A DNA stretch of 63,711 nt, filler included, from Collodictyon triciliatum (taxonomy: Eukaryota): the NCBI GenBank assembly GCA_043381765.1. It is 12 parts of 12 records of this genome, joined end to end, with 100 filler letters (N's around TTAATTAATTAA, not from the genome) between each part and the next. Parts side by side here need not be neighbours in the genome. Positions count along the whole stretch, not along the records: positions 37,251 to 42,463 come from JBHJMP010005379.1; 11 more parts are not named here. One strand, 5' to 3'. Shown one piece after another: positions 1,908 to 61,083 of the stretch. Each line of letters starts with the position of its first letter. Within the stretch, counting starts at the first letter, position 1. Below the pieces are notes generated by a model. That model made no database searches, was not told the origin of the DNA, and worked only from the letters and a program-made list of their open reading frames with translations. The translations under genes and the position numbers were made by a program.

Positions 1908-2429
1908 ATGATTGAAAGGACTCGTCGGAATCGATTTTCGAAGTAATTGCCATGTGCGTACTTTCATCGACCCGACAACTTTGTCCGCTCTTCTATCAGT
2001 ATCGAATACAACCAGAAATCGCGTTGGAACTGAACCACCTCGGGTAGAATAGTTTGCGTGTGAGAACACTTCCTCTTCTCATTTCTATTTTCTTTTTCCT
2101 TTTCTTCTTTTTTTTCTTCCACCCAAAACACAAAAACTCCAACCACACAATCCGGGGTTTTCTACTGTCTTGTCCACAGCTCGTTATTGTCCTAGAGGCG
2201 AAGGCGGTTTCCTCGGCTTTGTTTTCTCTCAATAAACTGTTGAAAAGAAACCAAAAAAAAATTATTTTCAATACAAGCTCACAACCACATGCACTAGCAT
2301 GAAAAAAGAGCACTCATACATAAGCAGTGCCTGTACAAGTCTGGAGATGCCAGTCCACCCTGTCAACTGTCATCCTCCGTGACAGCCATCGCCCTATACG
2401 CCAGGAAATGAATCTGCAGCTCAAAATCT

Positions 2430-2494
2430 TTTTTTATTTTTTTTTTTTTTTATTCACGACAGACTTAGCTGTTGGCGCCCATGCCAACAATCAA
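2430..2494 (-). mobile_element. 65-nt 5'-truncated retroposon 3' end with poly(A) and 16-bp TSD
   Basis: Direct repeat CTGCAGCTCAAAATCT at 2414-2429 and 2495-2510 flanks poly(T) plus TTATTC plus a hairpin. Homologous to 52972-53018. Confidence 0.75.
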
Positions 2495-2661
2495 CTGCAG
2501 CTCAAAATCTCGCGGCTGCTGCCACACACTCGGGGAACAACTATCGGTTCGGTGCCCTGGGCGGAAACAAACAAACAAACAAACAAACAAACAAACAAAC
2601 AAACAAACAAACAAACAAACAAACAAACAAACAAACAAACAAACAAACAACAGGCCACATC

Positions 2662-3505
2662 ATGTTCCAATCCTTCCCGAGTACCGAAGCACACACTACC
2701 GTGACCTGTGATATCTGCAGCACATGTCCGCTCATCGGCCCACGCTTTGTGTGCCTCAACTGCCCCAACTTCGACGTCTGCCGCAGCTGCTACCGCCCTG
2801 GCGAGATGAACCACCCATCCAACCACCACTTTCTACTTTTGCGCCAGTCTGCCGCAGGCTTCATCGTCTCACAGACATGCACGCCCATCCAAACGCAAGA
2901 AACCCGCACACACTTGGGTATCACTTGCGATTTGTGCCGGTCAACTCCGCTCGAAAAAGTACGTCTCAAATGCTGCACCTGTCCAGACTTCGACGTGTGT
3001 GCAGCCTGCATCCCACGCCTGGCCCAGCCTGACTCCCACAACCCGGCTCACGCTTTTCTGCTACTGCACAGAAGGCCCAACTCGTCCGTAGGCTCACCTG
3101 AGTCCATGATAGCTAGAGGTTTAATCCCTAGAGAAGTCCTCACTATCCAGGTAAAAGCGTAGACTTACCCAAGTAGTCACTCCCACAATCAGTTTCAATC
3201 ACACACGCAGCCTTTCCTGTGCAAAATATATCAAACAGTACTGTTGATGCATTTTCTAGGTCGACACTGCTGCAGAAGCAGAACGAAAAGCCGAAGCAGA
3301 ACGAAAAGTCGAAGAAGAACGAAAAGTCGAAGAAGAACAAAAAGCTGAAGAAGAAAGAAAAGCCGAAGAAGAACGAAAAGTCGAAGAACGAAAAGCTGAA
3401 GAAGAAAGAAAAGCCGAAGAAGAACGAAAAGCCAAGGAGGCATTAACAGCTGTTGAGGTCAAACAAAACCTACTACTCGAAAGAGAGGTAAATGCACGAT
3501 ATTGA
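2662..3505 (+). CDS. Tandem ZZ-type zinc-finger protein with E/R/K-rich helical repeat tail
   Basis: Two ZZ motifs (CDICSTCPLIGPRFVCLNCPNFDVCRSC..H..H; CDLCRSTPLEKVRLKCCTCPDFDVCAAC..H..H). Intron 3151-3259 (GT..AG, phase 0) joins an exon encoding (EEERKA)n. The 3' end is uncertain because of an alternative donor at 3488. Confidence 0.8.
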
Positions 3506-4016
3506 AAAACAAGAAAATGTATCTGAAACCTAAGAAGATGAATAATAGGTTCAGTTCGTCCAGGCCAAAAGAACATTTCACCCAGGTTTGAATATCTTAC
3601 CCTAACTTCATAAAATTTTATTATTGAAGAATAAAGACGCCTATAACATCATGCCACGCAGATCGAACACAGAAAGGCTACAAACCGTTTACAGAGGGAG
3701 AAGTTTTCACTTTGTTGTCGCTTGACTCAGAAGAGTAAGCCTGAAACGAAGATACAAGATGAGGAGGATAATTTTGCCTTTTTTCTTCTTTTTTTGGAGT
3801 CATTGTGTAATTGATTCTAGGGCATTTAAAGTCAGCGGCACAGACGGCGACTTCTTCATAGAAAAGACCCATGCCAAGGAACTCAACCCTGGCTGTTGTG
3901 GAAACGCATCACCTAAAGGTTTATATATAAAACGGTTGTTATTATTTTGCGTGCCATTTTTTCTTAGTGAATTGTATTTCCTTCTTCCATCAGACCAACA
4001 AAAAAGAAGATACAAG

Positions 4017-5080
4017 ATGTCCAAAAGAGAACAGCCCATCTGCGCAAATGAACAAGATGAACCTCCTCAAACAATAGCGATGGACATTCCTGTAATTAGT
4101 CATTTTCCTTTCTTTATACTCACAACAATCAGAAGGAAATGACCAACCAATTTTAACCCAGAGCGAGCAGGAAGCCAGTGTCACTGAGACTGAAATCAAT
4201 GCATGCCTCAGCGGAGGTCTCTGCATCGTCTGTGTGGAAGAATATAACAGTCCGTGCTCTCTGCCGTGTGAGCACATATTCTGCTCTAGTTGCATCAAGG
4301 CGGTCTTTACCAATGCAGACGAGGAGCCACCGATACCATGCCCGCTCTGTGCTGAGCCTGCATATATAGATGGGAACTCTGTTGGTGAGTTGAAATCATA
4401 TTGTCACGATTCAGCTTCTTTAGGAGACACAAATGCTGCTATAGAAGCTGGGAAGGATGCTGGGATTACTGTGGTTCTCAAGTGTAAAGGAAGAAATTGC
4501 AAGGAGAATGCCAGCTATTATTGTGTTGTCTGTGCTGAGAAGGGTCTATTCTGTGAAAAGCATGGCGATATGCATATGGAATCGTTGGACGGGCATCTCC
4601 TCGAGTATATTTCGTTAGTCTATTCACGAATATCCAATTGTTTGAGACTATTGCCATCATTATAATAAATTTTTCTTTTCCTATTTATTTTTCTTTTTTC
4701 TATTTTCTATTTTCTATTTTCTATTTTCTATTTTCTATTTTCTATTTTCTATTTTCTATTTTCTATTTTCTTTTCTTTTTCTTTTTTACTTTTGAATTAG
4801 GCCACTCAATTTTGGGGCTCCGCCAAGTGCAAGAAAGACAGAGACCTGTAAGATTCATAATAACTTTCCAATCAGCTATTACTGTCCCTCGTGTATAGAG
4901 TCTCCATTAAAGTGTGCCGAGTGTGCTTTGAAAGACCGGAAACACCAAGAGGAACACAAGGAGCTTTTTCAGCAAGGATTCGACTTTGATTCCATTCTAA
5001 CCACCAAAATGCAAGAACTGCGCCACTCAGAGAGAAAGTTGGCACTAAACACCGAATCTGTCCAATTGAAAATAAGAAAG
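4017..5080 (+). CDS. RING-B-box-B-box-coiled-coil (TRIM/RBCC-like) E3 ligase, 3'-truncated by contig end
   Basis: C3HC4 RING CIVCVEEYNSPCSLPCEHIFCSSC...CPLC; B-box-like CKGRNC..YCVVC...FCEKH..H; second B-box CKIH..YYCPSC...KCAEC...H; helical region follows. Introns about 4099-4132 and 4614-4800. Confidence 0.8.
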
Positions 5081-5099
5081 GTTGGAGAACACCTTGTTA

Positions 5100-5221
<122 letters not shown>

Positions 5222-5321: not shown

Positions 5322-6878
5322 TTTTTCTTTTTTCTTTTTTCTTTTTTCTTTTTTCTTTTTTCTTTTTTCTTTTTTCTTTTTTCTTTTTTCTTTTTTCTTT
5401 TTTCTTTTTCCTTTTCTTTTTCTTTTTCTTTTTCTTTTTCTTTTTCTTTTTCTTTTTCTTTTTCTTTTCGTTCGTTTGATTGTATATGATAGATCAAATA
5501 TAGCCAGTGTGTCATGGATCGAACAAGACGTGTATTGGAAGGCGTGGTTGGAGAGGAACCAGAGGCGATGAAGCGAGGGACAAACTTACACGAAGAAAGA
5601 GGTCGTTCTGCAGGGGAGCAAACTTCGACATGGTCTGGGAAAAGCTCTTTAGGAGGAGAATGAAGAAAAGTATATATGAGAACGTGAATTTGATCGGCTT
5701 CATGCTGCGCTGCAAAGAAACAGATCTGCAACCACGAGGGGCTTTGTCTTTGTGGACTGGAGGTGCGAGAGACGAAGAAGCGATAGGTGAATAATCCTGA
5801 ACTCTTCCTTGACCATGCACAGCACAGATCAGTTGGATATCACACGAAGCAGGCTGGGTCTGCCGATCATCCAGCAGCGTCTTTGGCTGCGACGAAGACC
5901 TTGAAACCTCATAAAAAGAAAAAGGGAAGGAAAAAGAAAAAAAGAAGAGGCGCATGATCGTCCAATGGCAACCACAACTAAATTAGGACGTGTGTGGTAT
6001 GGATGTTACGGTAAGTATAAATTATTTATACATGTTATTACATATATAATTCTATAAAATTGTCTATTTATATATAAATTAAAAATTTAAATTAGATAAT
6101 GAATCTTATAATCAAATAAAAAATAATTAGATAATTAATATATTATATATTCCACATATGATTTCATGTTATCCTAGAGGAATGGGACAACTGATATAGG
6201 TCAAAAATGGAATTAGAAGACATAGATTCAGCGAATTGCATCTAGAATGTATATTTGACGAAAATAATCCATATATAGAATACTGGTGATATATCTGGTA
6301 TGTTGTCGAGTCGAGATTTTTTTCTATTGGGTAAGGTGATTGCGAAAAGTCATGGCAGAAAATTATCAGAACCGTTGCGACAGGACTTCCAGATGTGTCG
6401 ATTGCGCACCTTTCCAGGCGATGTCGCGAGCTAAACGAGTCCAAATTGGGGATGCAGGCGCCCATATTCCAAGCATAGTAGCATGGGTCCATATTGGGAA
6501 ATACGCGGAGAGTTGAGTTCGAGAGATGGAAAACGGGTTGGTTGTTGCGAAAGGAAGACTGGTCGGGTTTGTTCCGGCCACAGAATGAGTGCCATGAGAC
6601 AGGCAGAATTTTTGCGGAAATGATGGTTTTCGAGGCACGATAATATATATATGTGGGTGAGTGCGTTTGAGTTTGCCAGAGTGTATATATCCAACTCTGA
6701 TGGTGAGGGAGCGAATGTCGTGGCCAGGGCTCATGGCATGGGCGATAGGCTTCCTGCCCAGAACACGGCGCCCAGCCGGCAAGCACGTGACAGATGACGC
6801 TGGAGTGAAGAGAAACTCACTGCGTGTCCAACGACATAGCACACAGCAACAGCAACTGAGACGCGCAAGACAAGGGCG

Positions 6879-7847
6879 ATGGATCTTCTTGCAATGGCCT
6901 CCACCTCAGCGTCCCTTGCGGAGCACACAAGACACCGACCAATCCACGCACAGACGGCCATGCTGATGACGCTGACGATGGCGCACGCGGCAGCAGGAGA
7001 GGCCGGCCCCTTGGCAGACGAGGAGGGCAGCAGCAGCCTCGTGCATCGCACGCACCACTGGACGCCGGAGGAGGACGCCCAGCTGGCGGTGGTAAGGCCA
7101 CAAGACTCTCCTGTCAAGGCGCTGTCACCCACGCGCGCTGTCACTCACGCGCACTGCCACCCACGCAGATCATGGAGCAGCGCGGCCCAAAGAGCTGGCG
7201 GCTGGTGTCCGAGCTGATGGGCGGCGTGCGGACGGCAGACCAGTGCTGCCAGCGCTGGCACCGCGTGCTGTGCCCGTCCATCAACCACCGCGACTGGACG
7301 CCCGAGGAGGACGCCCGCCTGCTGCATGCGCTGCGCGTCCACGGCGAAGGGCGCTGGCGCGAGGTTTGTGGCCCGTCCAGTCTGCCCCCTCGCACGCCCA
7401 CCACACTCACCGACACCCCTCCAGATTGCCCGCCTCACGCCCGGACGCACAGGGCAGCAGTGCCGCTACCGCTACCGCCACCTCAGGCGCCTGGACGACG
7501 GCACCGTGCGCAAGCGCCACAAGTCGCGCCATCGCCGGGCGTATCTGCTGTCCCACACGCCCGACCCCCACGCGCCCAGCCTCAGCCTTCGCCTCAGCCC
7601 CGCAGACGACACTGACGACACCGCCAGCAGCGCACTCACCGCCCCCAAGGCCGCCCCGTCCGCCACCGCAAATCCGGCCTCCAATGACGAGGCCAGCAAC
7701 CCCTCCTCTCTCTTGGACTCGGCCGTCGCTCTCCAGCAGCTGGCCTGCTGCGCCCTGCACCTCCCCCTGGCCCGCCCCGTCTCCGCTCCTCTCGACAAGG
7801 CATGTCTCCTCCCTGCTGAAAGCCTCTTCTCTCCGCCCTCTCTCTGA
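6879..7847 (+). CDS. R2R3-type MYB transcription factor (3 exons)
   Basis: WTPEEDAQL..GPKSWRLVSELMGGVRTADQCCQRWHRVL and WTPEEDARL..GEGRWREIARLTPGRTGQQCRYRY. Introns 7092-7168 and 7364-7424 with CTCAC branch-like motifs. Start could be 6879, 6894 or 6960. Confidence 0.9.
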
Positions 7848-8935
7848 TGCCTTCTGTCCTCCCTTTAGGCTCCGCCCCGGTCTGCAAACAGGATGTCACT
7901 CGACTGGATACTCAATTGACTCTCACCGCCTCCTGCCTCTCTGTCCCACAGGCACTTTTGTTGATGCCTACTCACACGCACCGCCCCATTTCCCTTACAT
8001 TTATTCATTTGAACCCAATATATGAAGCCCTTTCACTGCCTCACTCCACCAAAGAAAAAAATCACCACATTATGTATGTATAGTAACTCCATTCGTCGGG
8101 GTGTTTGGCGGTTGTACTTTTCCTCCTCAACAACATGCCTCAAAAGGACACCCGATTTCCAAGATACCTCTCCCTCCCTTTCTTCCCGTATGCCCTCACC
8201 TTGCGAGCTGCAACGTTTTATAAAAGTAACACTCGCTGTGTATACAGCAAAAGAAAAGCATTGTTACTCTGTGACGACTCGACCACACGACCTGGGGCTC
8301 TGTTCCCTCGTGGCGCGCACCCCGTCCGGGATTAGCCGCGCGATGCTTACATTTTTTTGTTTCCTAGGAATATTTGTTAACGAGAATCGGCGCGAGGGTA
8401 GAAGACACTAAGAATGATGGCTGTACCTTTTTCCCTCACCCTCCCCTCATTCTGAATATTCGGTTTCTCCTCAAAGTTGCCAAAAATACCACATTCGGTG
8501 CTTCGAAAGTGTCGCCCAGCTATTTCTCAGAACAAGATGTCTCGCTGCAACCTCTCACACGATAACCTTCCACGTTGCATAAGCTTATAACAATGACAAT
8601 AATGGTATTTAAAATAATGAATTTATGCCTCCCAATAATCACTACCCATAGACATATTTCTATAGTGGGATTTATCACAATTACCTACTTATGGTTGACT
8701 CTATTTGTCCTTTTATATTAAGATAAAGAGAAAAGAAATCAAGAGGATACATGCGAAAAACATTTCTAGTGACGCTATCCGAGGACACTTTGGAATATCT
8801 GAAACCCTTTGGAAGGGATTGGAGATACACAGGAAGAGATGAATGGAGGTGGAAAAAAAATTCCCCGGACTCCTGAATCATTGCACATACTTGACCATGG
8901 ACATTGATATTTGGTGATGGCAATCAAAAGGAACA

Positions 8936-9856
8936 TCAATTAATTGGGAGGCAGTTGGACCATCTATACCTTTTCGGCTTGGCTGTGGGGATTCGAGCGA
9001 TATTGGAATACATATCATGGAGCTCATTGTATTCTGAGCGATACCGAACTAGATGAATCAGCGTAAAGGAACCAATAATGTTCGAAACAATCAGAAAAGC
9101 CCAAAACATCCCAAAGTTCCTACCGCCTGCTTGATACTCATTGCCTGGGTTGTTGCCCGTTACGTACCAACAACCGATTAACACAGGCGCTGCTATAATT
9201 ATCCAAGCCAACTTGAGTACAGAAGATAAATTGTAAATAGGCCACGTTAAAAAGAGAACATATCGCCTCCGCAGGTAAGATCTACTTAGATATGTCTCCA
9301 GAAAACTGATGAGGACAGGAACCCAGTAACTGGAAACATGAAGGACCCACGCGCTTTCCTCGGATATGTCATCATGTTGGGCTCGATCTCGGATCAGATC
9401 ACCGTCTGTGGCGATGACAAAACCACCCACACTGAAAGAAACAAACGAGACAACAAATGAGATTGGGTGAGTGGCAACGATGAACACAGCATTGAGAGGT
9501 GCCTCTACGTCGAGCGAGTAGTAAACAAGATCGCAAAGCAGACACCAGAAGGCCAGGTCGCTATGCATTGAAGGAGCCTGACCAGGATAGACACGTAGAA
9601 ACCGTGTTTACTCCATACATTCATTATTATAATAATAAATATCCTCATCGATGTATGAATAAACAGGAAATGGAAAGTGTAGTGAGGCTTTAGGAAATCA
9701 ATAGCTAAGCGGTACCATAACAGAGACACTCAACACTGCGGACAGAATGAAGATAAAGCAGAACTTCCTCAGCACAAAAGTAAGCTTGTGGCGCAAGTGG
9801 TCCTCGTCCTCCAGAACATCCAGATCAAGGTGCGTCTCGATGGGTCTGTAGTCCAT
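8936..9856 (-). CDS. Multipass membrane protein, possibly FAR-17a/AIG1-like
   Basis: Exon 9716-9856 (47 codons from ATG) plus intron 9578-9715 (GT..AG) plus exon 8936-9577 gives an open frame with about 6 hydrophobic segments. The family call is tentative. Confidence 0.65.
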
Positions 9857-21851: not shown

Positions 21852-21923
21852 GGCTCTATGGTGTAACGGTTAGCACTCTGGACTTTGAATCCAGCAATCG
21901 CAGTTCAAATCTGCGTAGGGTCA
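21852..21923 (+). tRNA. tRNA-Gln (anticodon TTG)
   Basis: Acceptor GGCTCTA/TAGGGTC, D-arm TGGTGTAACGGTTAGCAC, anticodon arm CTGGA-CTTTGAA-TCCAG, T-arm CGCAG-TTCAAAT-CTGCG; T-run (Pol III terminator-like) about 11 nt downstream. Confidence 0.95.
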
Positions 21924-38165: not shown

Positions 38166-41100
38166 TTACTGGATTGAACATCTTGGATTCTTCTGCGCAC
38201 TCGTCATTTGCTTTTCTGCATCTTTGGTCTCGGAATGGTCTGCACCATATACATGACCATACACCTCCTTGGCCTTTTGGTACATGTCCACAGCATCTTG
38301 GTATTTCTTCTGTTTCATGAGTATAATACCAATATTATAGTATGTATCCCCAACATCACAGTATATTTCTCCAAACACCTTCAGTCGAATTTCAAGTGAT
38401 TTGTGGTAGTATTCAAGAGCTTTTTCATACCTATTACAGAAATTTAATGAAAGGATAAACATGCTACATAATCAAATAAAAGATACTTTCCGAGTTCGCG
38501 ATATACTTCTCCCATATTATAATATGACGTCGCAACATCAGGGTGTATTTCTCCAAACACTTTCGGCCGGATTTCCAGTGATTTGTGGTGTAATTCAAGA
38601 GCTTTTTCATACCTATAACAAAAATTTAATGAAAGGAAAAGCACAAATACATAGTCTAATAAATATGCTTTTCGAGGATATTGTAAACCATCCCGATGTT
38701 ATTATATGACATCGCAACATCAAGGTGCATTTCTCCAAACACTTTCAGTCGGATTTCCAGTGATTTGTGGTGTAATTACAGGGCTTTGTCATGTCCATTA
38801 TATAATTATTAATGAAGAGATAAACATGCTACATAATCAAATAAAAGATAGTTTCCAAGTCGAAGATATACTCCTCCAATATTATTATATGACGTAGCAA
38901 CATCAGGGTGTATCTCTCCAAACACTTTCACCTTAATTTCAAGTGATTTGTGGTAGTATTCAAGAGCTTTTTCATACCTATAACAAAAATTTAATGAAAG
39001 GAAACACATAAGTATTAGTCATCTGAATCATACTTTCCAAGGCTATAGCAAACGATTCCGATGTTATTGTATGAAGTAGCAACATCAGGGTGCATTTCTC
39101 CAAACACTTTCAGTCGGATTTCCAGTGATTTGTGATGTAATTCCAGGGCTTTGTCGTGTCTATTAAATAATTAGTTAATTAAATGAAAAGCATAAATAAA
39201 TAGTCAACTAAATCATACTTTCTGAGGCTATAGTAAACCAGCCCGATGTTATTATATGACGTGGCAACATCAGTATGTATTTCTCCAAATACTTTCTGTT
39301 TGATTTCCAGTGAGTTGTGGTAGTACTCTAGAGCTTTGTCATGCCTATTAAATAATAGGTTAATGAATGGATAAAAGAAAAACATAATCAAATATGTAAA
39401 TACTTTCCGAGCTCATCGCAAACAACTCCCAGATTATTATATGAAGTAGGAACATCAGGGTGGAGTTCTCCAAACACTTTCAGTCGATTTTCTAGTGATT
39501 TGTGATAGTACTCCAGAGCTTTGTCATATCTATTAAATAATAAGTTAATGAAAATAAAAAACATAAAAACATAGTAAAATAACATACTTGCCGAGATTCT
39601 TGTAAATCAACCCAAGGAAATTCAGATTATTGCCATTAGAACCTAATACAAATGAACCAATATTAGCAACACTCACAAATATACAAATCAACTGACCAAA
39701 CCTTCATCCGTCTCAACAGAAATGCGGTGCTCAAGAATCGGAATCAAAAAGGTATTCTCTTGGATTTGTCGAAAGTAATCAATCAATGCAGAGCCAGCAG
39801 GATTCAGTTGCTGTTGTACATGCCCATTAAGATAAATTCAATATTGATATATGTAATTGATTTTTATCACCTTAGCCAACTCACAATAGACAGCTTTGTG
39901 GTCATATCCGTTCTTATTCAGCTCTCTCCAGCATTCATAAAACTTGAAGCGATAGTTGCCATGCAGCATGCTCACAATAACCTAAAAACTAAATTACAAC
40001 ACATATCATAGTAATATAAATGAAACCCGCAATCAAACCTTTTCATTCTTCATAAAATCCACCAGTTTATCATATTCGCTCTAAATCCTCAGATTGTGGC
40101 ATATTTCGGCAACAACATTCTTGTCTTCAGTGTCAGAGCGGTATTCACCCAGCAGCCACAATCCATATTCACGTGCTTCACTTGTTGTGTATGCTTCATC
40201 CTTAAAGTATCGCCATTTGATGGATTGTGTAAGCAGCTGATGAGAGAACGCGTATCTAAGATTAAATATTGATATTAACAATTACGACCATTGAAAATTA
40301 TTGAATAACCGTATTGCCTCCCGTTCCTAACAAAGAGAGAATCCAGCAAGACAAAGAGAAATGATTTCCTAAAATAAAAAATACGATTTATCAAAAGTGA
40401 CACATATGTATCATATGACAGGAATCGATATACCAGGTTGCATGATTGATTTGCATGTGAGTTTGGTTAAGTCGATGCTCCATGTATTTGTCCAGCTCAT
40501 TTTCATCAAGACCGATGCGCGACACATAAAGGACACTGATGGACAGGCGAACAATATCTTTTCCTAAAATTGCATTTAGTCAATAAAATTATTGAAAGTA
40601 CCAATTTAGATGTATCACAAAACCGTATTTCTTTTCCCAGCGAGTCATCACAAGGTCGAACAAATCGACAACTCCCTTTGTCTCCAACATTTCACGAAGC
40701 TCGGTGTCTACTCTTTCATACACTCCAAACACACGAAGCTCATCCAGCACAATCCGCAGGTAGAGTGGATGACCTATTATCGTATTCACAATTAAATATA
40801 TATATATATACTAAAAATAAAATATAAAATATTCGAATCATTAATACTACTCACCGGTATCAGCGCGGTCAATCAGTATCATTTCCATCTGTTTCTCGTT
40901 CAAGGTCTTGTTGTAGCGCTTGAAGAACGAGGTAGTTGCTTGTTTGATTCCGACATCGTCAAGCTTCGACACAGAAATGACATCTAGCCCTGCTGACTTG
41001 GCAACCTATTCAAAAGCGATTGGATTAATTCAAGCATAGTATATCCTCGAAAAAATTAACAAACATCGCATGATTCGTGGGTGTCGATGGTTGATGCGAC

Positions 41101-42463
41101 AATGGATATGTTCATTGGTGTCTTTTTGGGAAGCCATTCAAGGCGGTGGACGTGCTTATTTTGCTCCGAATTGACCAACTGGTTGAATGCATCGATGACC
41201 AGAATAATCCGCTTTTTCCTGCATTGATTGACTTGTCAGATAGTATATATTTTAATTAAAAAAGAGATATTTGAAATCGACTCGTTTATTGATACAAGCT
41301 TGAGTATGTGGTCTAGTCCCTTCTTCAAAGCTTCCTTCCCTGCAATAAGGCATAGAAACAAAATGAGTGCTCATTTAAATTGTTGAATTAAAGCTATAAA
41401 AAATAGATAAAAATTAATTATCATTTGAAATATAAACCTTCTTCGGAATCAAGTTTCAGCTTGATTGCTTCATTTTCAACAAGAACGCGAGCTACACGCT
41501 CCACCAAACTATGACAAAAAGGTGATTTATACTTATATGACCAATTAAAATATTCCACGTTACTATATTATTCGATTATTCTTACTTTTCCACATAGTTA
41601 CTCAGGTTTGAGCATCCGACGAAGTGGTAGATGACTACTAGATTCAACTTTTTGCTCGCATTCAGGTCACGAACCAGTCCGCTCATAATCGTCGATTTGC
41701 CAATACCAGACTCTGCTCCAACAACGATGATATCAGAACCGTCATTATCGAGTTGCAACATCGCTCTGTTTTTCAAAATGGCCAAAATGGTGTTTCTTCC
41801 TTCCAATCCAATCAGTCGATGTCGCATAAACTGCTCATGCGCCATGTCCTCAGGATGCTTATACTACAAGGTTATTTTATTATAATTAGAGAGCCAAAAT
41901 ATCGTAAGTTATCTTAATATTGATAACACTTAAAATTTCTTTGAAAACAAACATCTTGGTCGGGAAAATCCTTGTCGATAGCTTCCATCAAGTCATCAAC
42001 CATCATCGAGACGAGCTGCTGGGGTGTCTTGTATGGCTTGACTTCAAAGACATTTCCAATTTTTTCTTTCAATTCATCCTGGTTTTCTCTCTGAAATCAA
42101 GGTTCATATGAGTTTTTATATTATTGAAGAATTATAAAGAGAAATGGTCCAAAATTCTTTATGCGTACATCCTTTTCATTAACCGGGCGATATAATGCAC
42201 GCTCTGCATCGGTTTCAGCAACGTGGTTGACTGCATGTTCTTCATCTCGGGAATAGAAGAGTGCACGTCGGGCAACAGGATTTTCTTTCAGAGCACCGTG
42301 AACAATCTATTTGACATGAATGATGTTAGAGACTGATAGTGATAAATACAAATATTCGACTACAAGTGGATATACAGTATAAATGAACCTCGTAGTCAGT
42401 CACACTGAGACCCCGAATCTCCTTGAGGTATGGAAACTTCAAGTCCGTGTCTGGATGCCATTC
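38166..42463 (-). CDS. DUF4062-like/NACHT/TPR protein (NPHP3/TEP1-type STAND NTPase), 5'-truncated
   Basis: GLSVTDYEIVHGAL...ALFYSRD; Walker A GAESGIGKST; VVIYHFVGCS; Walker B IILVIDAFNQL; LEWLP; HPLYLRIVLDELRVFG; then 42-aa TPR exons; ends PRCSIQ*. Confidence 0.9.
38487..39529 (-). repeat. Array of six 126-nt TPR exon cassettes, two of them splice-defective
   Basis: Cassettes 39404-39529, 39219-39344, 39034-39159, 38852-38977, 38669-38794 and 38487-38612, all phase 2, separated by 56-59-nt related introns. Confidence 0.9.
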
Positions 42464-42717: not shown

Positions 42718-44791
42718 ATGCCGAAACCGCGCCCTCTTGATAGACGAACTGCATCAAAAACAGCCACCGATGGAGTTAAAACAGGTTTGTAGACACCTTT
42801 TTTTTTTTACTCTCATTTCTCTAAGTGAGTCGCCTTGACAAACTATAATTGTGTCCTGTATAACCTCATATTTGTCACATTTGCTTTATCTAGAGACAGA
42901 CCCTCGTTATCGACAACTGAAGCGATCGACGCCGACAAGGAAGGAGCTTCGAAAAATGAAAAAAGAAGAGATAAAAAATCGCCACAGGGCATACACAGAG
43001 GTTTTTCATAAAGTCAAATAAACTACATACAAAACATTCAATATAAAGCCTGACAAACAACAAACCTCTATTTTTATTTTATTTTTACGTTCTCAAAATC
43101 TATAGAAGCGTGCTTCTGCGAAAGTGTCTGAATCCAAACCACAACCTCGAAGGAATCCTTCTCAAAAGCCTACCAAAGGAAAGGATACGAGTAGTATAAA
43201 AAAGCAAGAGAAGAAAAAGGACAATAGACAAATTCATAGGCCAACACATCCAGGAAAGAGAGAGCCATTCATTCCAGACTCTATGAAGGAGACGAATTTT
43301 TATAAACTTCTAGTCGAACAAGGCCTAGTAAAGGCAGATGCTACCAACCAGGTAATTTTTTTATTAGAAAAGAGAAGATTTCATTTTAATGAAGCTTTGC
43401 TATATAAGTTAATTGAAAAATGAATACTAAAAAACACAAAAAATGTAATAGAATAAAATAGAATAGAATTAATTGAATATACAAGAAAATAAAGAAAAGA
43501 TTTAAAGCAGTTAATTTAGAACCTGGGCCATGCTTATACTGCCACTTCAATTCATCTTAGAGTGCAGATTTGAAAAAGGACATGGATGAAATCAAAAGAC
43601 TAGAAAAGAAATTAAGAATTAAAAGCAAAGATGAATGGGACACTGACTGTAAATCGAGTGGACTTAGTGGTAAGAAGTTTCTGTAAGATTAATGGTGGCA
43701 ATATTAAAATAATGTTCATATAACTCGCCTTAACGGTATTAAGTACATTTCCTTTCTCTTTATATATTTTTCATTTACCATTTTCACTATTAGATATCTT
43801 GAAGGGAATAAGTTCAGGAAAACCATCGGAATCAAACCCCAAACCAAGTATTCAAAAAGAAATGGTGGTCAAAAGAAAAGCATCAAAAAAACCTTCTAAG
43901 GAGTCAATTTATGGAGACCAGAAATGGTTCAAAGGCAGTTTAGAGGAATCAGAAAAGCATCCAAACGCTAATAAATCGGATGAGATGGGTGATAATGATG
44001 TTGATCTGTGGGGCCTTGATGACCTCGAGGCTGGATTCGAATTTGAAGATGCCGATGAAGATGAAGGGAAAATGAATGATGAAATTGAGGAGGATACCAG
44101 CTTTCAAGAAGGTGACATTAACAAATCAATTAATGATGAAGATGAAGGGAATGAAGAGGGAGGACAAGGCAACGATAATGGCACACAAGAAAATGAGGAC
44201 AAAAATGACGGCGAAGACGGCGAAGATTATGACGACGAATATGATGTAGGTGATGAAGATGATGAAGGTGATGAAGATGATGAAGATGATGAAGGTGATG
44301 AAGATGATGAAGATGATGAAGGTGATGAAGGTGATGAAGGTGATGAAGGTGATGAAGGTGATGAAGCTAACGGGAAAGTAATTTCATATGCACCTACACA
44401 AAGTATAATCATCGCACCCAATACAACAACGCCTAAAGATTCTGGGGCGAAGAGGGATACAGAAAAAACTTCTAAAACCCCCGACCCCACCAAACCATCC
44501 TCAACGGAGACGAAAAAGGTCGGAAAGTATATTCCGCCTCATCAAAGAAATGATGGAAAACTGGAAGCAGTACGGAGAAAGGTCCGTGGCTTGCTAAACA
44601 AGATATCCGAAGGAAATCTGGAGCCGGTTTTTAATGATATAAATCAATTCTACAATACTTTTTCGAGGCATGGTGAGAATAATCAAGCTAGATGTGTTCA
44701 CACGAGTCTCTTTCGCCTCGTGATACATATATGACATTCAATTTACAATTTTTTTTTATTGATATACTTAACTTACAAAATGATTGACAGC

Positions 44792-53922: not shown

Positions 53923-55222
53923 ATGAACCGCCTCACAGCCCTCGCCGTCTTTGTCTGCGTCGCTGTCCTTTCGGTATGTGCCTGACTCACCCACCCAACC
54001 TGCCTCTAATGCTCATGCCCGACCCTGTCTCCGTCTCCGCACTGTGCTGCGAACAACAGGTGCAGGAGTCGTTCTCCTCTGTCTTTGTTGTTCACTCTCG
54101 AAACCTTCCCATTTGCCACCCGCAGACCGCTGCGCTTGCTGCCCAGCAGGACACCGAGAATCAGCCAGGATCGGGAGAGCTCGTTCCCAGTAGGATACAT
54201 GATACGCACATACACACATACACACATACACACACACAAACGCATACAAACATACAGATATACATACACACACACACTCATATACATGCAAACTGAAATA
54301 CACACCCAAACCGCACAGCCAAGCCGCCCGTGACGTGGGCCCCTGCACACGCCAACAACTACAAGCCGGCCAACCGCGGCGTGGGCTCCATCAAGTACAT
54401 CGTGATCCACACAACGCAGGGCTCGTACCCGGGCTCCGTCTCGTGGTTCCAGAACCCGTCTGCGCAGGTCTCCGCACACTACACCATCAACAACCACAAC
54501 TGCGGCCGCTATGCCAGCTACAACCGCGGCTACCCGGACGGCCAGATCACCCAGTCGGTCTCGGACATCAACATCGCCTACCACGTGGCCAGCGCCAACA
54601 CCTACTCCATCGGCATCGAGCACGGTTTGCCCTTGCGTCCCGCACTCTGATTCTGACTGTGATCATGCCTGTGATTCCGACCATGGCCATGCCTAATTCT
54701 GACTCTCTGCAGCGGCCTACCTGGACCCCGCCAACGCATACCGAGGTGACCTCTGCCGCACATCCTCTCCTGCACCAGCACGCAAACAACCAAGGCGATC
54801 TTTACACTCGCACACTTACACTTACACTTACACTTACACTTACACATGCGCATACACATCCACATCCACATCCAGTTGTCGGCAGCTTCTCCACCGCCAT
54901 GTACGACTCGTCTGCCCGCCTCTCTGCCTACATCTGCTACGCCTACGGCATCGCTGTCAACCGCAACAACATCCTCGGCCATGTGGAGTCGTACAAGATC
55001 GGCGGCACCAGCGACCATCAGGTGGGCCCTCATTCTATCGCAAACCACACTTCACATATCGCGCGTGTGTCTGGATAATCTGTTCCTCACACCCCGAATC
55101 CCCACAAGGATCCCGGACCGTCGTGGGACTGGACAACATACATGAACCTGGTCAACCGCTACCGCAGCGCCTACGAGCTCGGCCTCATCGAGCCTCCCAA
55201 CGTCAAGCTCCCCGCAGCCTAA
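53923..55222 (+). CDS. Secreted N-acetylmuramoyl-L-alanine amidase (Amidase_2/AmpD-like), 6 exons
   Basis: Exons 53923-53973, 54126-54189, 54319-54624, 54713-54745, 54876-55021 and 55109-55222 splice in frame. Signal peptide MNRLTALAVFVCVAVLSTAALA; YIVIHTTQG, VSAHY, IAYHV, SIGIEH, ILGHVE, DHQDPGPSWDW. Confidence 0.92.
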
Positions 55223-55467
55223 GCCGGGCTGTGTGCCTGATAAATCGCGGCTGCGAAAGCCGTAGCAAATCGTGACAAAGAGCGACTCACCAGACAAAAC
55301 AAACAAACAAACAAACAAAAACAAACAAACAAAAACAAACAAACAAAAACAAACAAACAAACAAAAACAAACAAACAAGAAATAGAAACGGAGAGAGAAG
55401 GGAAAGGTGGGCCGAACTAAAGAAGGCAGGAAAGCAGGCACCAAGGCAAAGCGAAGCAGCAGAGGGC

Positions 55468-56635
55468 ATGAGCCAGCAGCAAGCGCAGCCGCCCAGCGCC
55501 ACGAGCACGGTCGAGTGTGCGAGCAGCGGGCCACAGGGCTACAGGGCCACTCCCGCCGCGCCGCTGCATCTCCAGACCCTCGCCCACCACGCCTACAGCC
55601 ACAGCCACAGCCACAGCCACAGCCACAGCCACACGACGTCATCCACGGCGTCCGTCGCCACAGCGGCCACCGGCAAAGCGCCCGCCGCCGCCGCCCTCAA
55701 GAGCCACCGCTGGCTCAGAGCCTCCGAGGCCGCCGACCTGATAGAAAGCATACACGCGCACGCCCCGTACCCGCTCCTGTCGAAGCCTCCAAACAAGCCG
55801 AAAGGTCTGCGGCAGAGCCCGGCAACAAAATCCCCCTCACTTGCCAATCCCACCCGCCTCCCCCGACAGACGCCCATCCCACCCACAGCACCTCTGTTCC
55901 TCGTGCCCAACACCCAACCGCCTTTTTTTCTTATTCTCCTCTTCTCTTATCCAAGGTGGGTCAATACTCTTTTACGACAAAACAAAAACCCGCGACTACA
56001 GAATCGATGGATATACATGGGAACGCAAGGCCAATATCAACGCTATCAAGGAATACCACGAAAAACTAAAGGTGTCTATTCACACCTCCCAAAATATGCA
56101 ACTGTTGCGCTCCGCCTTGATTACTTCTTATGTATATTCATATAATCACAGCTAAAATTCAGCATCGAATCTACTCTATAGCAAATCATCTCAAATGTCA
56201 GAATATAATAATTGTTTTACAACCGCCATGTGCCACATTCTCACAATTTTTTTTTTAAAAAATTGAACGAAACATAGGTAGACGGGCGAGTACTTATAAA
56301 CTGCACGTATAACTATCTCGAAGGAAACAGGTCTTTTCAAAGGAGGTTTTATTCTCTTGTTGAGCGCAGAACGCCCCAAATAGTCATTGCCCAATACATG
56401 AACGTCTCCACTCTGATAACCAATCCCAAGGAAGCTGCCCCAAAGCAATCACATGCTGATCCATACCATGAAATCTCTGGGTGCGCCCAAAATACCTTCA
56501 ATATTACATCGCAACACCAAGCAGAGAGCCACGCCGGCAGAGAATTAACCACTCAGCCGTAATATTCCGACACTATCCCTATTGATTCTTTTTCTCCCTT
56601 TTCTCAATATAAATAACCTTCCAACTTTTGTGTTA

Positions 56636-56701
<66 letters not shown>

Positions 56702-58123
56702 CTTTCCATTTTCTGTCGATTACTCATCATACAGAGTTTAGAATATGTAAGAATTTTTTTATGCGGTTCCATTCAAATTTTACATGATTTTAATCCAATT
56801 ACAAGGATAACATTATTTCCTGTAAATCATAGTAGGTCTATATTACAAGAATACTCTCTATTGGAGTCTTCAAAATTATGTTTTAGTGTAGAAAGACATT
56901 CTTCTGGTGCCGATTTCAATCACAGTAAAAATCCAACTACTGATGCATTCAACCCCATCAGTACTCTGTCACATGGACAGGTAAAAGATTCGGCTGGTAG
57001 TTTCGTGTGTAATCATGCGCTACCAATGGAATCTATTTCCCATGCCTCGTCACACAATTTGCTGTTGTCTGCGAAATATATGTCCCCAAACAAGCATACA
57101 ATATATTTTCATCCTACCACACACAACGAAATAAATGCAGCCGCTTCTCAAGAAAACGGCTGCACGACACCAGGAAGTCGTCAAACCAGTCTAAATCGAA
57201 ACACTTCCATTACAAATATCGGCAACACTTGTGCACCAAACACTTTATTGAATACAGACCAGATTCTGCAACGTGATAGCCACGAAGACGAAAATCAACC
57301 AGCTGAGAACGCAGTCCAACTGAATTTCCAAAATATGCAACCCGGTGTGAATGAAGATAATTGTACGCACGAAATGAATCAGAATCGGAATTTAAACCAG
57401 AATCACGTCGGACACCTGCATTCCTCTTCAATACTTACAAATCCACTTCTACAGCATCGATCGGGTGTTGTTCACGGTAAGGAGTTCTTCAGTCCATTTC
57501 ACTCACCAATATTTGGCGTTAAATATCGAGCGAAAAAAAAAAGCAGCACCAAATCTTCCACCTATATTTTAAAAAACCGTGTCATTTCTTTTAATCGAAT
57601 AAAGGGGAAAAAACATGTCATTTTTAATATATTTTAATACAAACCAATTCAACTTTCACGTTTGAATTTACCTCAAATATTTTATTTCAAAATTATAAGC
57701 ACCTCACCCCATTTCCGAGCCAAAGATTGGCCAGGAAATCCCCCCTAGCGACAATGATTTAAAAGCTCATAATAAAACTATTACATCCGAGCCATGTATT
57801 CCGCTACCCCCATCATGGGACTTTTCCATATTCAACCCGCAGTCCCAACGGTATAACCGAACGATGGATGGTATTCTTTTCCACCAATCCTTTTTACGCA
57901 AGTCCAATAGGCGAATATCATTAATATGCCAATATTTATGTAGAATCCCAAAGTATGTGGATGGGGGATTACTTCTACCACAATTCAATCGAACATGGAA
58001 TTTACTCTCTGGACGAGCTTGATCCGTTCGGATACTATGTCCAAAATGAGCAACCTGCTTTTGATATAATTCCAGCACAACCAATATCGGATGTCGGCGA
58101 CCAAAACCTGTCATCTTCTCGTG
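55468..58123 (+). CDS. CG-1 DNA-binding domain protein (CAMTA-like), 3'-truncated
   Basis: HRWLRASE...PPNKPKGGSILFYDK..RDYRIDGYTWERK....IKEYHEKLKVDG..LINCTY......FQRRFYSL......IVIAQYMNV matches the CG-1 consensus. Introns 55805-55955 and 56072-56277. Confidence 0.88.
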
Positions 58124-58711: not shown

Positions 58712-61083
58712 TAGCCCTCGTGCAACATAATAAGACCTGGATGGGTATCTATTCATTATCATCATCTATTTATCATTTCATGGTAACTCTTACAAAGACG
58801 TCCTGAGTGGAATGGGGGGTTTGACAAATTTCTTTGCAATCCCTCGCAAACGTCTTCGTGACTGGATGATTTTTAACTGTGGCTATGCACCTTTCAACCC
58901 AATCAATTTCACAAAATATCACACACCCGTCATATGGGGTTTCTTACATCAAAATAAGAGAGTAAAATAGATACAAGCTAAGAAAGAAAGAAGGAAAATA
59001 TAGGGATAAAGTAAACAAATGATAAAAATTCATATACAGAAAAACGATGTTTACTTATGTTTTAGTTCGAGCTTTGTTTTAAAACACTTTTTTATGCGAC
59101 TGATAATTTTACCCTTTTTCATCATCAAGAAAAAATAAAACAAACTGAAAGAGATTCACTACGAATAGTCATTCGTTTTGAGTCTTCATGTTAGACTTTT
59201 AAACCAATGACGATAGAATATTCCGTCTTATTTTCTGAAAAATACTCCTATCCTTTGGCTCATAAACAAAAACACATATGGCTTGGTTACCTACTCTTCA
59301 CAATACTCAACAGAAAAACCTCAGATTTCTAAAAGAAGATATAGAGAAAATCAACAACTTCCTTCATTCACTCATTGAAAGGAATAAAAAAGAATATGAA
59401 AAACATCAACCATGTTCCGTGTATTCATATCGAGGACTTATATAATATTGCCAACGAATTTTCTCCGCAGGGGTTTCAAGCGGGACTCGCCATACAGGGT
59501 TAATGGAGCCCCCTCCGAAAACGAGTTCTGCATCAACTCCTGGTGGAGCTGCGAACGAACCCAGAGCCTTGTGTCCCTCGCCCTTTTCTGGTGGAGACTG
59601 GAGAATAACTTGCGAGCCTTTTCTGGCGCAAAGCCAAACTCTCCGACGAAGGCGTTTCCAGGGCTCGTCAATTCATGTTAGTGTCTAACTAATTTTTCTA
59701 ACATCATGGAGGATTTACACTAATTCCTTCTACACAAAAGAAAAAAGACGAAAGGAAAGAAATTATATATACATATGTAGACACATTATTGGATATAATC
59801 ATGATTGCTCACTTTTTTTTTATCCGGTTCGATATATCATTCATTTTGCATTTGTAGCAATTTATTGAATAAATATAAAATAAACATTTGTGTAAATCGA
59901 TGAATAGAAAAATATACCTTTCGAAGCATTTTTCTAACAAAAACGCATTGAAATCATCCCAATAATTCCACTCTCAATGAACCAATGGGAAACATATGGA
60001 TTTTTGAAAGGAAGAACAAAGCATGTTATATAATACTTTCCTTAACCTTATATCAAATGATAAGGGGCTCTTCTTTACAGTAACCTAAAATTACACTGTA
60101 TTGTTAGACCTTGAACGAAGTTATATTTAAAAATAATAAGTATTGNNNNNNNNNNNNNNNNNNNNNNNNNNNNNNNNNNNNNNNNNNNNNNNNNNNNNNN
60201 NNNNNNNNNNNNNNNNNNNNNNNNNNNNNNNNNNNNNNNNNNNNNNNNNNNNNNNNNNNNNNNNNNNNNNNNNNNNNNNNNNNNNNNNNNNNNNNNNNNN
60301 NNNNNNNNNNNNNNNNNNNNNNNNNNNNNNNNNNNNNNNNNNNNNNNNNNNNNNNNNNNNNNNNNNNNNNNNNNNNNNNNNNNNNNNNNNNNNNNNNNNN
60401 NNNNNNNNNNNNNNNNNNNNNNNNNNNNNNNNNNNNNNNNNNNNNNNNNNNNNNNNNNNNNNNNNNNNNNNNNNNNNNNNNNNNNNNNNNNNNNNNNNNN
60501 NNNNNNNNNNNNNNNNNNNNNNNNNNNNNNNNNNNNNNNNNNNNNNNNNNNNNNNNNNNNNNNNNNNNNNNNNNNNNNNNNNNNNNNNNNNNNNNNNNNN
60601 NNNNNNNNNNNNNNNNNNNNNNNNNNNNNNNNNNNNNNNNNNNNNNNNNNNNNNNNNNNNNNNNNNNNNNNNNNNNNNNNNNNNNNNNNNNNNNNNNNNN
60701 NNNNNNNNNNNNNNNNNNNNNNNNNNNNNNNNNNNNNNNNNNNNNNNNNNNNNNNNNNNNNNNNNNNNNNNNNNNNNNNNNNNNNNNNNNNNNNNNNNNN
60801 NNNNNNNNNNNNNNNNNNNNNNNNNNNNNNNNNNNNNNNNNNNNNNNNNNNNNNNNNNNNNNNNNNNNNNNNNNNNNNNNNNNNNNNNNNNNNNNNNNNN
60901 NNNNNNNNNNNNNNNNNNNNNNNNNNNNNNNNNNNNNNNNNNNNNNNNNNNNNNNNNNNNNNNNNNNNNNNNNNNNNNNNNNNNNNCAGTTAAAATTATC
61001 AGAATCGTATTAAGAGTTCAAATAAAACACATGCAGCAACAGCACTAGCATGTGTGGGTTTATCATATTAACAGAAATTACAG

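Follow-up and report, generated by a model that had tools for sequence, protein, structure and literature searches.

A truncated and probably inactivated NACHT-TPR gene with one repeat per exon in Collodictyon triciliatum

The DNA analysed here is a 63.7-kb stretch from Collodictyon triciliatum, in the following called the window, and the subject is a gene on one of its pieces (JBHJMP010005379.1) which appears to code for a STAND NTPase (signal transduction ATPase with numerous domains). In the predicted protein a nucleotide-binding oligomerization domain (NOD) is followed by an array of tetratricopeptide repeats (TPRs), and the array contains six exons of exactly the same length. The locus is best described as a copy, truncated at its 5' end, of a DUF4062-NACHT/NPHP3_N-TPR_12 gene. 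The window is not a continuous chromosome but a series of contigs, each about 5.2 kb in length (5209-5238 bases); the 11 linkers between the contigs, each of 100 bases (44 N, TTAATTAATTAA, 44 N), span 5222-58501. Since the contigs are joined by such linkers, the sequence beyond 37251-42463 gives no genomic context for the NACHT-TPR gene. One side of its contig ends in low-complexity repeats, and the other side truncates the 5' end of the gene.

The gene model consists of 22 exons on the minus strand, running from 42463 to 38166, and gives 969 codons in frame throughout (Table 1). The gene spans at least 42463-38166, and the 1.5-kb range given in the initial annotation covers only its 3' third. 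The 21 introns are 56-98 nt long: 18 are GT-AG, two are GC-AG and one is CT-GG. Splicing was followed in spliced contigs of relatives from two small public sequencing runs (X1 and X2), which hold 230 and 244 related contigs with 88 to more than 99 % likeness. Joints in these contigs coincide with model introns at 42306/42389, 41508/41586, 41338/41437, 41002/41062, 40771/40853, 40562/40623, 39810/39871 and 39639/39699, and in the region of exons E1-E3 the joints 42306>42389 and 42090>42170 are present. No sequencing run shares half or more of the sampled words; the four runs compared contain relatives only, and coverage or gaps over cassettes C4 and C5 are uninformative for this locus. The NACHT-TPR family is expressed, it is multigene, and the spliced contigs of the relatives have the same intron positions.

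The relatives of the NOD were found by scanning all 1.84 billion representatives with HMMER, the P-loop exon (E4) serving as query. Only 15 matches were obtained. Eleven of these are long true relatives, all from the transcriptome of Diphylleia rotans (11 clusters), and three come from environmental or NCBI contigs and cover a single exon each. One of these fragments is 87 % identical, and two continue into intron sequence past the same exon end as in E4. A match to an ostracod AIG1 protein was rejected as a spurious P-loop match. A word-index protein search with E4 gave no match among longer proteins, which is a miss of the method, since HMMER found the relatives. The model aligns with the 11 Diphylleia proteins over 465-948 residues with 32-48 % identity and 391-624 bits. 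These proteins carry DUF4062, NACHT, NPHP3_N, nSTAND1 and TPR_12, and one of them (P0002) also WD40. The alignment runs end to end. The initial annotation proposed a NACHT-like STAND gene with TPR cassettes here, and this is supported. The model starts at residue 121 of P0007, past the DUF4062 of that protein at 33-118, and the DUF4062 part would fall upstream of the contig end at 42463. Among solved structures, the N-terminal DUF4062 region of P0007 corresponds to a domain of TEP1 (11gz_A, E 1.6e-17) and its TPRs to kinesin light chain (E 7e-18).

Scored on its own against Pfam, E4 reaches 22.2 bits for NPHP3_N (cut-off 24.8), 17 bits for NACHT (26.7) and 13.4 bits for NB-ARC (23.5); all are single-exon scores below the cut-offs, the best matches being NPHP3_N and NACHT. 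The relatives exceed the cut-offs (P0005 with NACHT 35.4; P0014 with NACHT 34.0 and NPHP3_N 35.9) and show no NB-ARC matches. The Walker A sequence GAESGIGKST aligns with GxSGxGK[ST] in 11/11 relatives. For Walker B the hydrophobic ILVID is present, and it is followed by AFNQL rather than by acidic residues. DAxNQL is found in eight of the 11 relatives and nearly the same in the other three, and this form of Walker B is best taken as a trait of the clade and not as decay. The locus keeps Walker A, DAxNQL, STIDTH and GHPLYLR intact and in the form typical of the clade; if the copy is dead, this fits a recent loss.

The junction between E11 and E12 uses a GC donor. Loose ends at 40257 and 40318 in the spliced contigs of relatives mark this junction, and splicing at the GC donor gives the protein sequence SLFVRNGRYAFSHQLL, with the motif SLFVRNGRYxFxHQLL that is conserved in all relatives. 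A frameshift at this place, where a GT donor at 40309 breaks the frame, was considered and rejected; the GC donor at 40317 restores the conserved motif and fits the loose ends.

The six internal exons, here called cassettes C1 to C6, are each exactly 126 nt (6/6), and all seven flanking introns are in phase 2 and 56-59 nt long. The initial annotation had described these cassettes, and its coordinates are correct to the base on the minus strand; Tandem Repeats Finder reports the array independently, with periods of 182 (6.8 copies) and 365 (3.3 copies). The cassettes match Pfam TPR_12 above threshold from profile position 19, that is, half a repeat out of register with the 42-aa TPR period. Each cassette exon holds helix B of one TPR together with the linker and helix A of the following TPR; the introns fall in the turn within a repeat. 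Because of this arrangement and the symmetric phase 2, duplication, loss or skipping of a cassette preserves both the frame and the alternation of helices. TPR_12 scores above its cut-off (30.1 bits) in C1 (36.3 bits), C4 (37.3 bits) and the terminal exon (49 bits), and the terminal exon also gives 50.7 bits for TPR_10. The lesions that the initial annotation listed in C4 and C5 are found in the sequence as it gave them: C4 has an open frame, an intact acceptor and a CT donor, and C5 has a GG acceptor, an in-frame TAA and a GC donor. The in-frame skipping that it foresaw also holds, with 927 codons left without C5 and 885 codons without C4 and C5. Reading through the missing donor of C4 appends NYLLFDYVACLSLH and then meets a stop (14 codons).

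The array grew via tandem duplication of a two-exon unit of 365 bp. The unit [C3-intron-C4-intron] matches [C5-intron-C6-intron], the identities of the four pairs being 88.1, 80.4, 84.9 and 86.0 %, and this duplication explains the 365-bp period. C4 and C5, the dead cassettes, are the inner pair of the duplicated units, so that skipping both restores the order before the duplication. C5 is, besides its stop, changed at P24, T28 and G41 of the repeat, and it has TAA where its duplicate C3 has GAA. Of the six suspect sites, four fall in 185 nt (38667-38851), from the C4 donor to the C5 donor, and this clustering fits a C5 freed from constraint before the rest.

A further lesion lies outside the array. 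Exon E12 contains an in-frame TAG, which like the GC-AG intron in front of this exon was overlooked in the initial annotation. Its surroundings, VVAEICHNLRI-x-SEYDKLV, are conserved, and the 10/10 relatives that cover the site have G, S, C or A in its place. The Diphylleia proteins have open frames at this place; being known from transcripts alone, they give no direct view of exon structure. We rejected a mini-intron of 36 nt as a way round the TAG, as it deletes the conserved VVAEICH block and is shorter than the shortest intron (56 nt), and no plausible intron removes this stop. The initial annotation itself named a whole-gene pseudogene as one of the cases against its interpretation, and it is to a whole-gene pseudogene that the TAG, outside the range it described, points.

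Table 1. Features of the NACHT-TPR gene and its contig (positions in the window)
Feature	Position	Strand	Remarks
Gene-bearing contig	37251-42463	.	Bounded by 100-base linkers
Exon E1	42463-42389	-	Cut by contig end; linker region between missing DUF4062 and NOD
Exon E2	42306-42169	-	Same linker region
Exon E3	42090-41953	-	Same linker region
Exon E4	41863-41586	-	Walker A P-loop GAESGIGKST
Exon E5	41508-41438	-	
Exon E6	41339-41282	-	
Exon E7	41218-41065	-	Walker B ILVIDAFNQL
Exon E8	41005-40855	-	
Exon E9	40773-40624	-	GHPLYLR
Exon E10	40563-40434	-	
Exon E11	40368-40318	-	
Intron E11/E12	40317-40256	-	GC-AG; donor GC 40317-40316
Exon E12	40255-40039	-	Conserved helical part of NOD module
In-frame TAG	40083-40081	-	Model codon 523, in E12; premature stop upstream of TPR array
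Exon E13	39981-39871	-	
Exon E14	39810-39702	-	
Exon E15	39642-39588	-	First half-TPR, ends in phase 2
Cassette C1	39529-39404	-	Intact, 126 nt, GT-AG phase-2 introns
Cassette C2	39344-39219	-	Intact, 126 nt, GT-AG phase-2 introns
Cassette C3	39159-39034	-	Intact, 126 nt, GT-AG phase-2 introns
Tandem duplication	39159-38431	-	Two-exon unit of ~365 bp; [C3-intron-C4-intron] matches [C5-intron-C6-intron]
Cassette C4	38977-38852	-	Acceptor AG intact, frame open, donor CT 38851-38850
Cassette C5	38794-38669	-	Acceptor GG 38796-38795, in-frame TAA 38778-38776, donor GC 38668-38667
Cassette C6	38612-38487	-	Intact; duplicate partner of C4
Terminal exon	38430-38166	-	Last TPR and C-terminal tail; stop TAA 38168-38166

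We therefore read the locus as probably a recently inactivated paralog which carries an in-frame pseudo-exon, with a probability of about 0.55. The whole copy is read as inactivated because of the TAG in a conserved NOD exon together with the dead donor on the otherwise intact C4. In the order of events that we infer, the acceptor of C5 would have been lost first, after which C5 could be skipped in frame and without harm. As an in-frame pseudo-exon it would next have acquired its TAA, and its donor the T>C substitution. The change in the C4 donor and the TAG would have come later, both of them damaging; use of C4 would then run translation into the intron up to the stop described above. Intact members of the family would act as switches resembling NLRs (nucleotide-binding leucine-rich repeat receptors); if they follow the general pattern of STAND proteins, the NOD would be kept closed by the TPR arm until ligand binding.

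Several points weigh against reading the copy as inactivated. The lesions are read from the assembled sequence alone, and the TAG could be a sequencing error or belong to one allele. An excess of decay in the dead cassettes was not seen (derived substitutions are 6 in C5 vs 7 in C3, and 8 in C4 vs 7 in C6), and the model contains no frameshifts or indels; any inactivation would for these reasons have to be recent. The GC donor of E11 must be spliced to keep the conserved motif, so GC donors may work here and the GC of C5 is perhaps no lesion. Two GC donors in 21 introns (E11 and C5) is high for a eukaryotic gene; either such donors are common in the organism or both are the result of T>C decay. 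It should also be noted that among the 40 of 237 differences to expressed relatives that were listed, 30 are exonic, with 14 synonymous and 16 not; this split shows constraint in the family and does not date the death of the copy.

The gene could instead be functional, with C4 and C5 as silent pseudo-exons inside one 421-nt intron (from the C3 donor to the C6 acceptor) and a protein with five cassette-derived repeats, the TAG being an error, a null allele or read through. We find this unlikely. In its favour, the frame left by skipping is open except for the TAG, the order restored is an H-type followed by a Y-type cassette, the NOD motifs are intact, and inactivated TPR exons within introns of otherwise intact genes are described for Ectocarpus in the relevant passages of PMC3341825. 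Against it stands the TAG, which lies in a conserved block and cannot be spliced around. In addition, the strong acceptor of C4 lies 56 nt from the C3 donor, where introns are 56-98 nt, so that C4 is likely to be recognised, whereupon it is without a donor and the stop after 14 codons follows. That the lesions do not occur together in any real molecule is a further alternative, to which we give a small chance: the orphan 5.2-kb contig would be a collapsed or chimeric consensus of paralogs. Like many other unplaced pieces, this contig measures about 5.2 kb and ends in low-complexity repeats, and a 182/365-bp tandem array with 72-88 % identity in a multigene family is a setting prone to mis-assembly. 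However, the lesions are all single-base substitutions within coherent units, and exon lengths, phases and the pairing of duplicates are perfectly regular, where some irregularity would be likely in a chimera. Two 151-nt contigs from a lake metagenome are moreover identical to C1 and to the C2/C3 border; they lie outside the lesions and are maybe not independent of the assembly. Together with the Diphylleia matches, these pieces indicate that the source is most likely a freshwater protist akin to Diphylleia.

If TAA and TAG were sense codons, as in ciliate-type codes, neither stop would be a lesion. Both in-frame stops are indeed of the TAR type, the TAA of C5 stands where its duplicate has GAA, and the model has no in-frame TGA. 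But the gene ends at a TAA placed 19 residues past HSET, against 20 in P0023, the same place as the C-termini of the homologs, which argues that TAA is a stop here. There are moreover just two TAR codons in the 969, and an open frame of 1126 codons on another contig, rich in the glutamine codons CAA and CAG, has zero TAA or TAG. The sole tRNA-Gln found has the normal anticodon UUG, and a variant code would leave the CT donor and the GG acceptor unrepaired; altogether we regard it as very improbable. Somewhat less improbable, though still doubtful, is a role of the dead cassettes as a reservoir, retained to donate sequence in gene conversion or unequal recombination, by which the TPR arms of this gene and its paralogs would be diversified. 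The cassettes are symmetric and interchangeable, the frame of C4 is fully open and consensus-like in spite of its dead donor, and related transcripts have other cassette orders (a C5-like end before a terminal-type exon in two runs, and E15 before a C2-like cassette). There is however no direct sign of conversion tracts in the one locus examined, and C5 carries, besides its stop, the three changes in the repeat noted above. Paralogs were also searched for: tblastn and blastn with the model or the cassette region gave no match in the window on any of the 11 remaining contigs, and the metagenome contigs yielded none either.

The other cassette orders deserve a closer description. The joint 38429>38669, present in both X1 and X2, brings a C5-like end directly onto a terminal-type exon, and the joint 39343>39591 in X1 brings E15 directly onto a C2-like cassette. 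Since these joints may stem from paralogs or orthologs, they point to arrays that vary across the family rather than to alternative splicing at this locus. Among Trinity isoforms of Diphylleia, differences by internal 42-aa blocks were found in 0/11 pairs. Three isoform pairs (P0007/P0023, P0021/P0020 and P0014/P0028) differ by short hydrophobic tails rich in F, C, I and L, and the tails of the shorter isoforms begin at, or at most two residues from, positions homologous to introns of the locus. This suggests that the tails are retained introns and that the intron positions of the cassettes are shared with Diphylleia. In metagenome contigs the cassette pattern gave 0 matches, and the E4 profile gave eight loci with similarity limited to the P-loop stretch.

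Among known systems the closest likeness is to the NB-ARC-TPR genes of Ectocarpus. In the passages of Zambounis et al. (2012; PMC3341825) concerned with them, 13 NB-ARC-TPR genes are described, five of 24 loci are probable pseudogenes and half of the loci are clustered. These genes, like the locus, code for STAND NTPases with a C-terminal TPR array in which the 42-aa unit corresponds to one 126-nt exon, and in both the exon border lies near the GKY turn. In Ectocarpus, TPR exons inactivated by nonsense changes or lost splice sites are interspersed with live ones on the coding strand, as C4 with its CT donor and C5 with its GG, TAA and GC are here. The NOD differs, being NB-ARC in Ectocarpus and of NACHT/NPHP3_N type at the locus, and so does the lineage, stramenopile vs CRuMs; here a single locus was seen, probably dead, on an orphan contig. 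The locus appears to work like the Ectocarpus genes while standing outside their NB-ARC clade. The brown-algal precedent on which the initial annotation drew is therefore real, as far as these passages go, and by the same passages repeat-per-exon TPRs with inactivated exons are already known; the NACHT-type case adds to this. The brown-algal genes coding for ROCO proteins with leucine-rich repeats (LRR) share with the locus the repeat-per-exon organisation, exon shuffling and pseudo-exons, and they differ in having 72-nt LRR exons and a ROC-COR GTPase instead of TPR and NACHT (PMC3341825; PMC11378527). Alternative splicing of tandem LRR exons in these genes is described in the corresponding part of Teng et al. 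(PMC11378527).

Within the NACHT-type family the nearest relatives are the Diphylleia rotans proteins (EukProt; P0002-P0014), which are homologs over the whole model, have the same NOD motifs and carry 42-aa TPRs of kinesin light chain type. The Pfam entries NPHP3_N and TPR_NPHP3 match them; for TPR_NPHP3 most score under the cut-off of 100 bits. In animals, NPHP3, TEP1 and kinesin light chain have housekeeping or ciliary roles; they are single-copy proteins and are not known to form an expanded family. Literature linking NACHT-TPR genes with Diphylleia was searched for and none was found; for the combination of DUF4062, NACHT and TPR, two papers came up, both concerning unrelated taxa.

Some observations concern other pieces of the window, and as the linkers separate unrelated contigs, gene-neighbourhood inferences across any of them are invalid. 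Two contigs, at 6001-9000 and 54001-57000, have about 50 % G+C vs 32-36 % in most others and contain long overlapping open frames on both strands, which is typical of GC-rich DNA; they may be foreign DNA that entered the assembly, or compartments of differing composition within the genome. The open frame of about 1126 codons lies at 26619-29951 (+) and consists mostly of tandem 16-aa units (EEEQRQQAEIARLAAI, 48-nt period); the opposite strand is also open over about 900 codons. The tRNA-Gln gene with anticodon UUG at 21852-21923 (+) is the sole RNA-family match in the window. At 2383-5221 (+) there are open frames whose Cys/His patterns, judged by eye, resemble ZZ, RING and B-box zinc fingers in a TRIM-like layout. 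On the contig next to the gene, 43724-44734 (+) is an open frame of 336 codons with a long acidic stretch rich in D and E, the C-terminal part of which we take to resemble the start of a MIF4G-type nucleolar protein. A gap of 841 N is found at 60146-60986, within the last piece.

The interpretation in the initial annotation, a modular non-self sensor, is partly supported for the family, with its 230 and 244 related contigs and 11 Diphylleia clusters; the locus itself is probably dead. The value of the locus is then that of a pointer to a family and not that of a functional gene. One may go further and suppose, as a speculation that we consider rather unlikely, that Diphyllatea (CRuMs) carry a lineage-specific NACHT-TPR repertoire in which phase-2 cassettes are duplicated, silenced and exchanged among paralogs, silent ones such as C4 forming a reservoir. 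If this is true, the repertoire would be a case of receptor diversification by exon cassettes independent of that in brown algae and in a very deep branch of the eukaryotes. If the family behaves as the locus suggests, repeat-per-exon STAND receptors with pseudo-exons would not be peculiar to brown algae; they would be a solution arrived at repeatedly, here with another nucleotide-binding module and in a protist lineage that branches deeply. This bears on how repertoires of intracellular receptors may be diversified beyond animals and plants.

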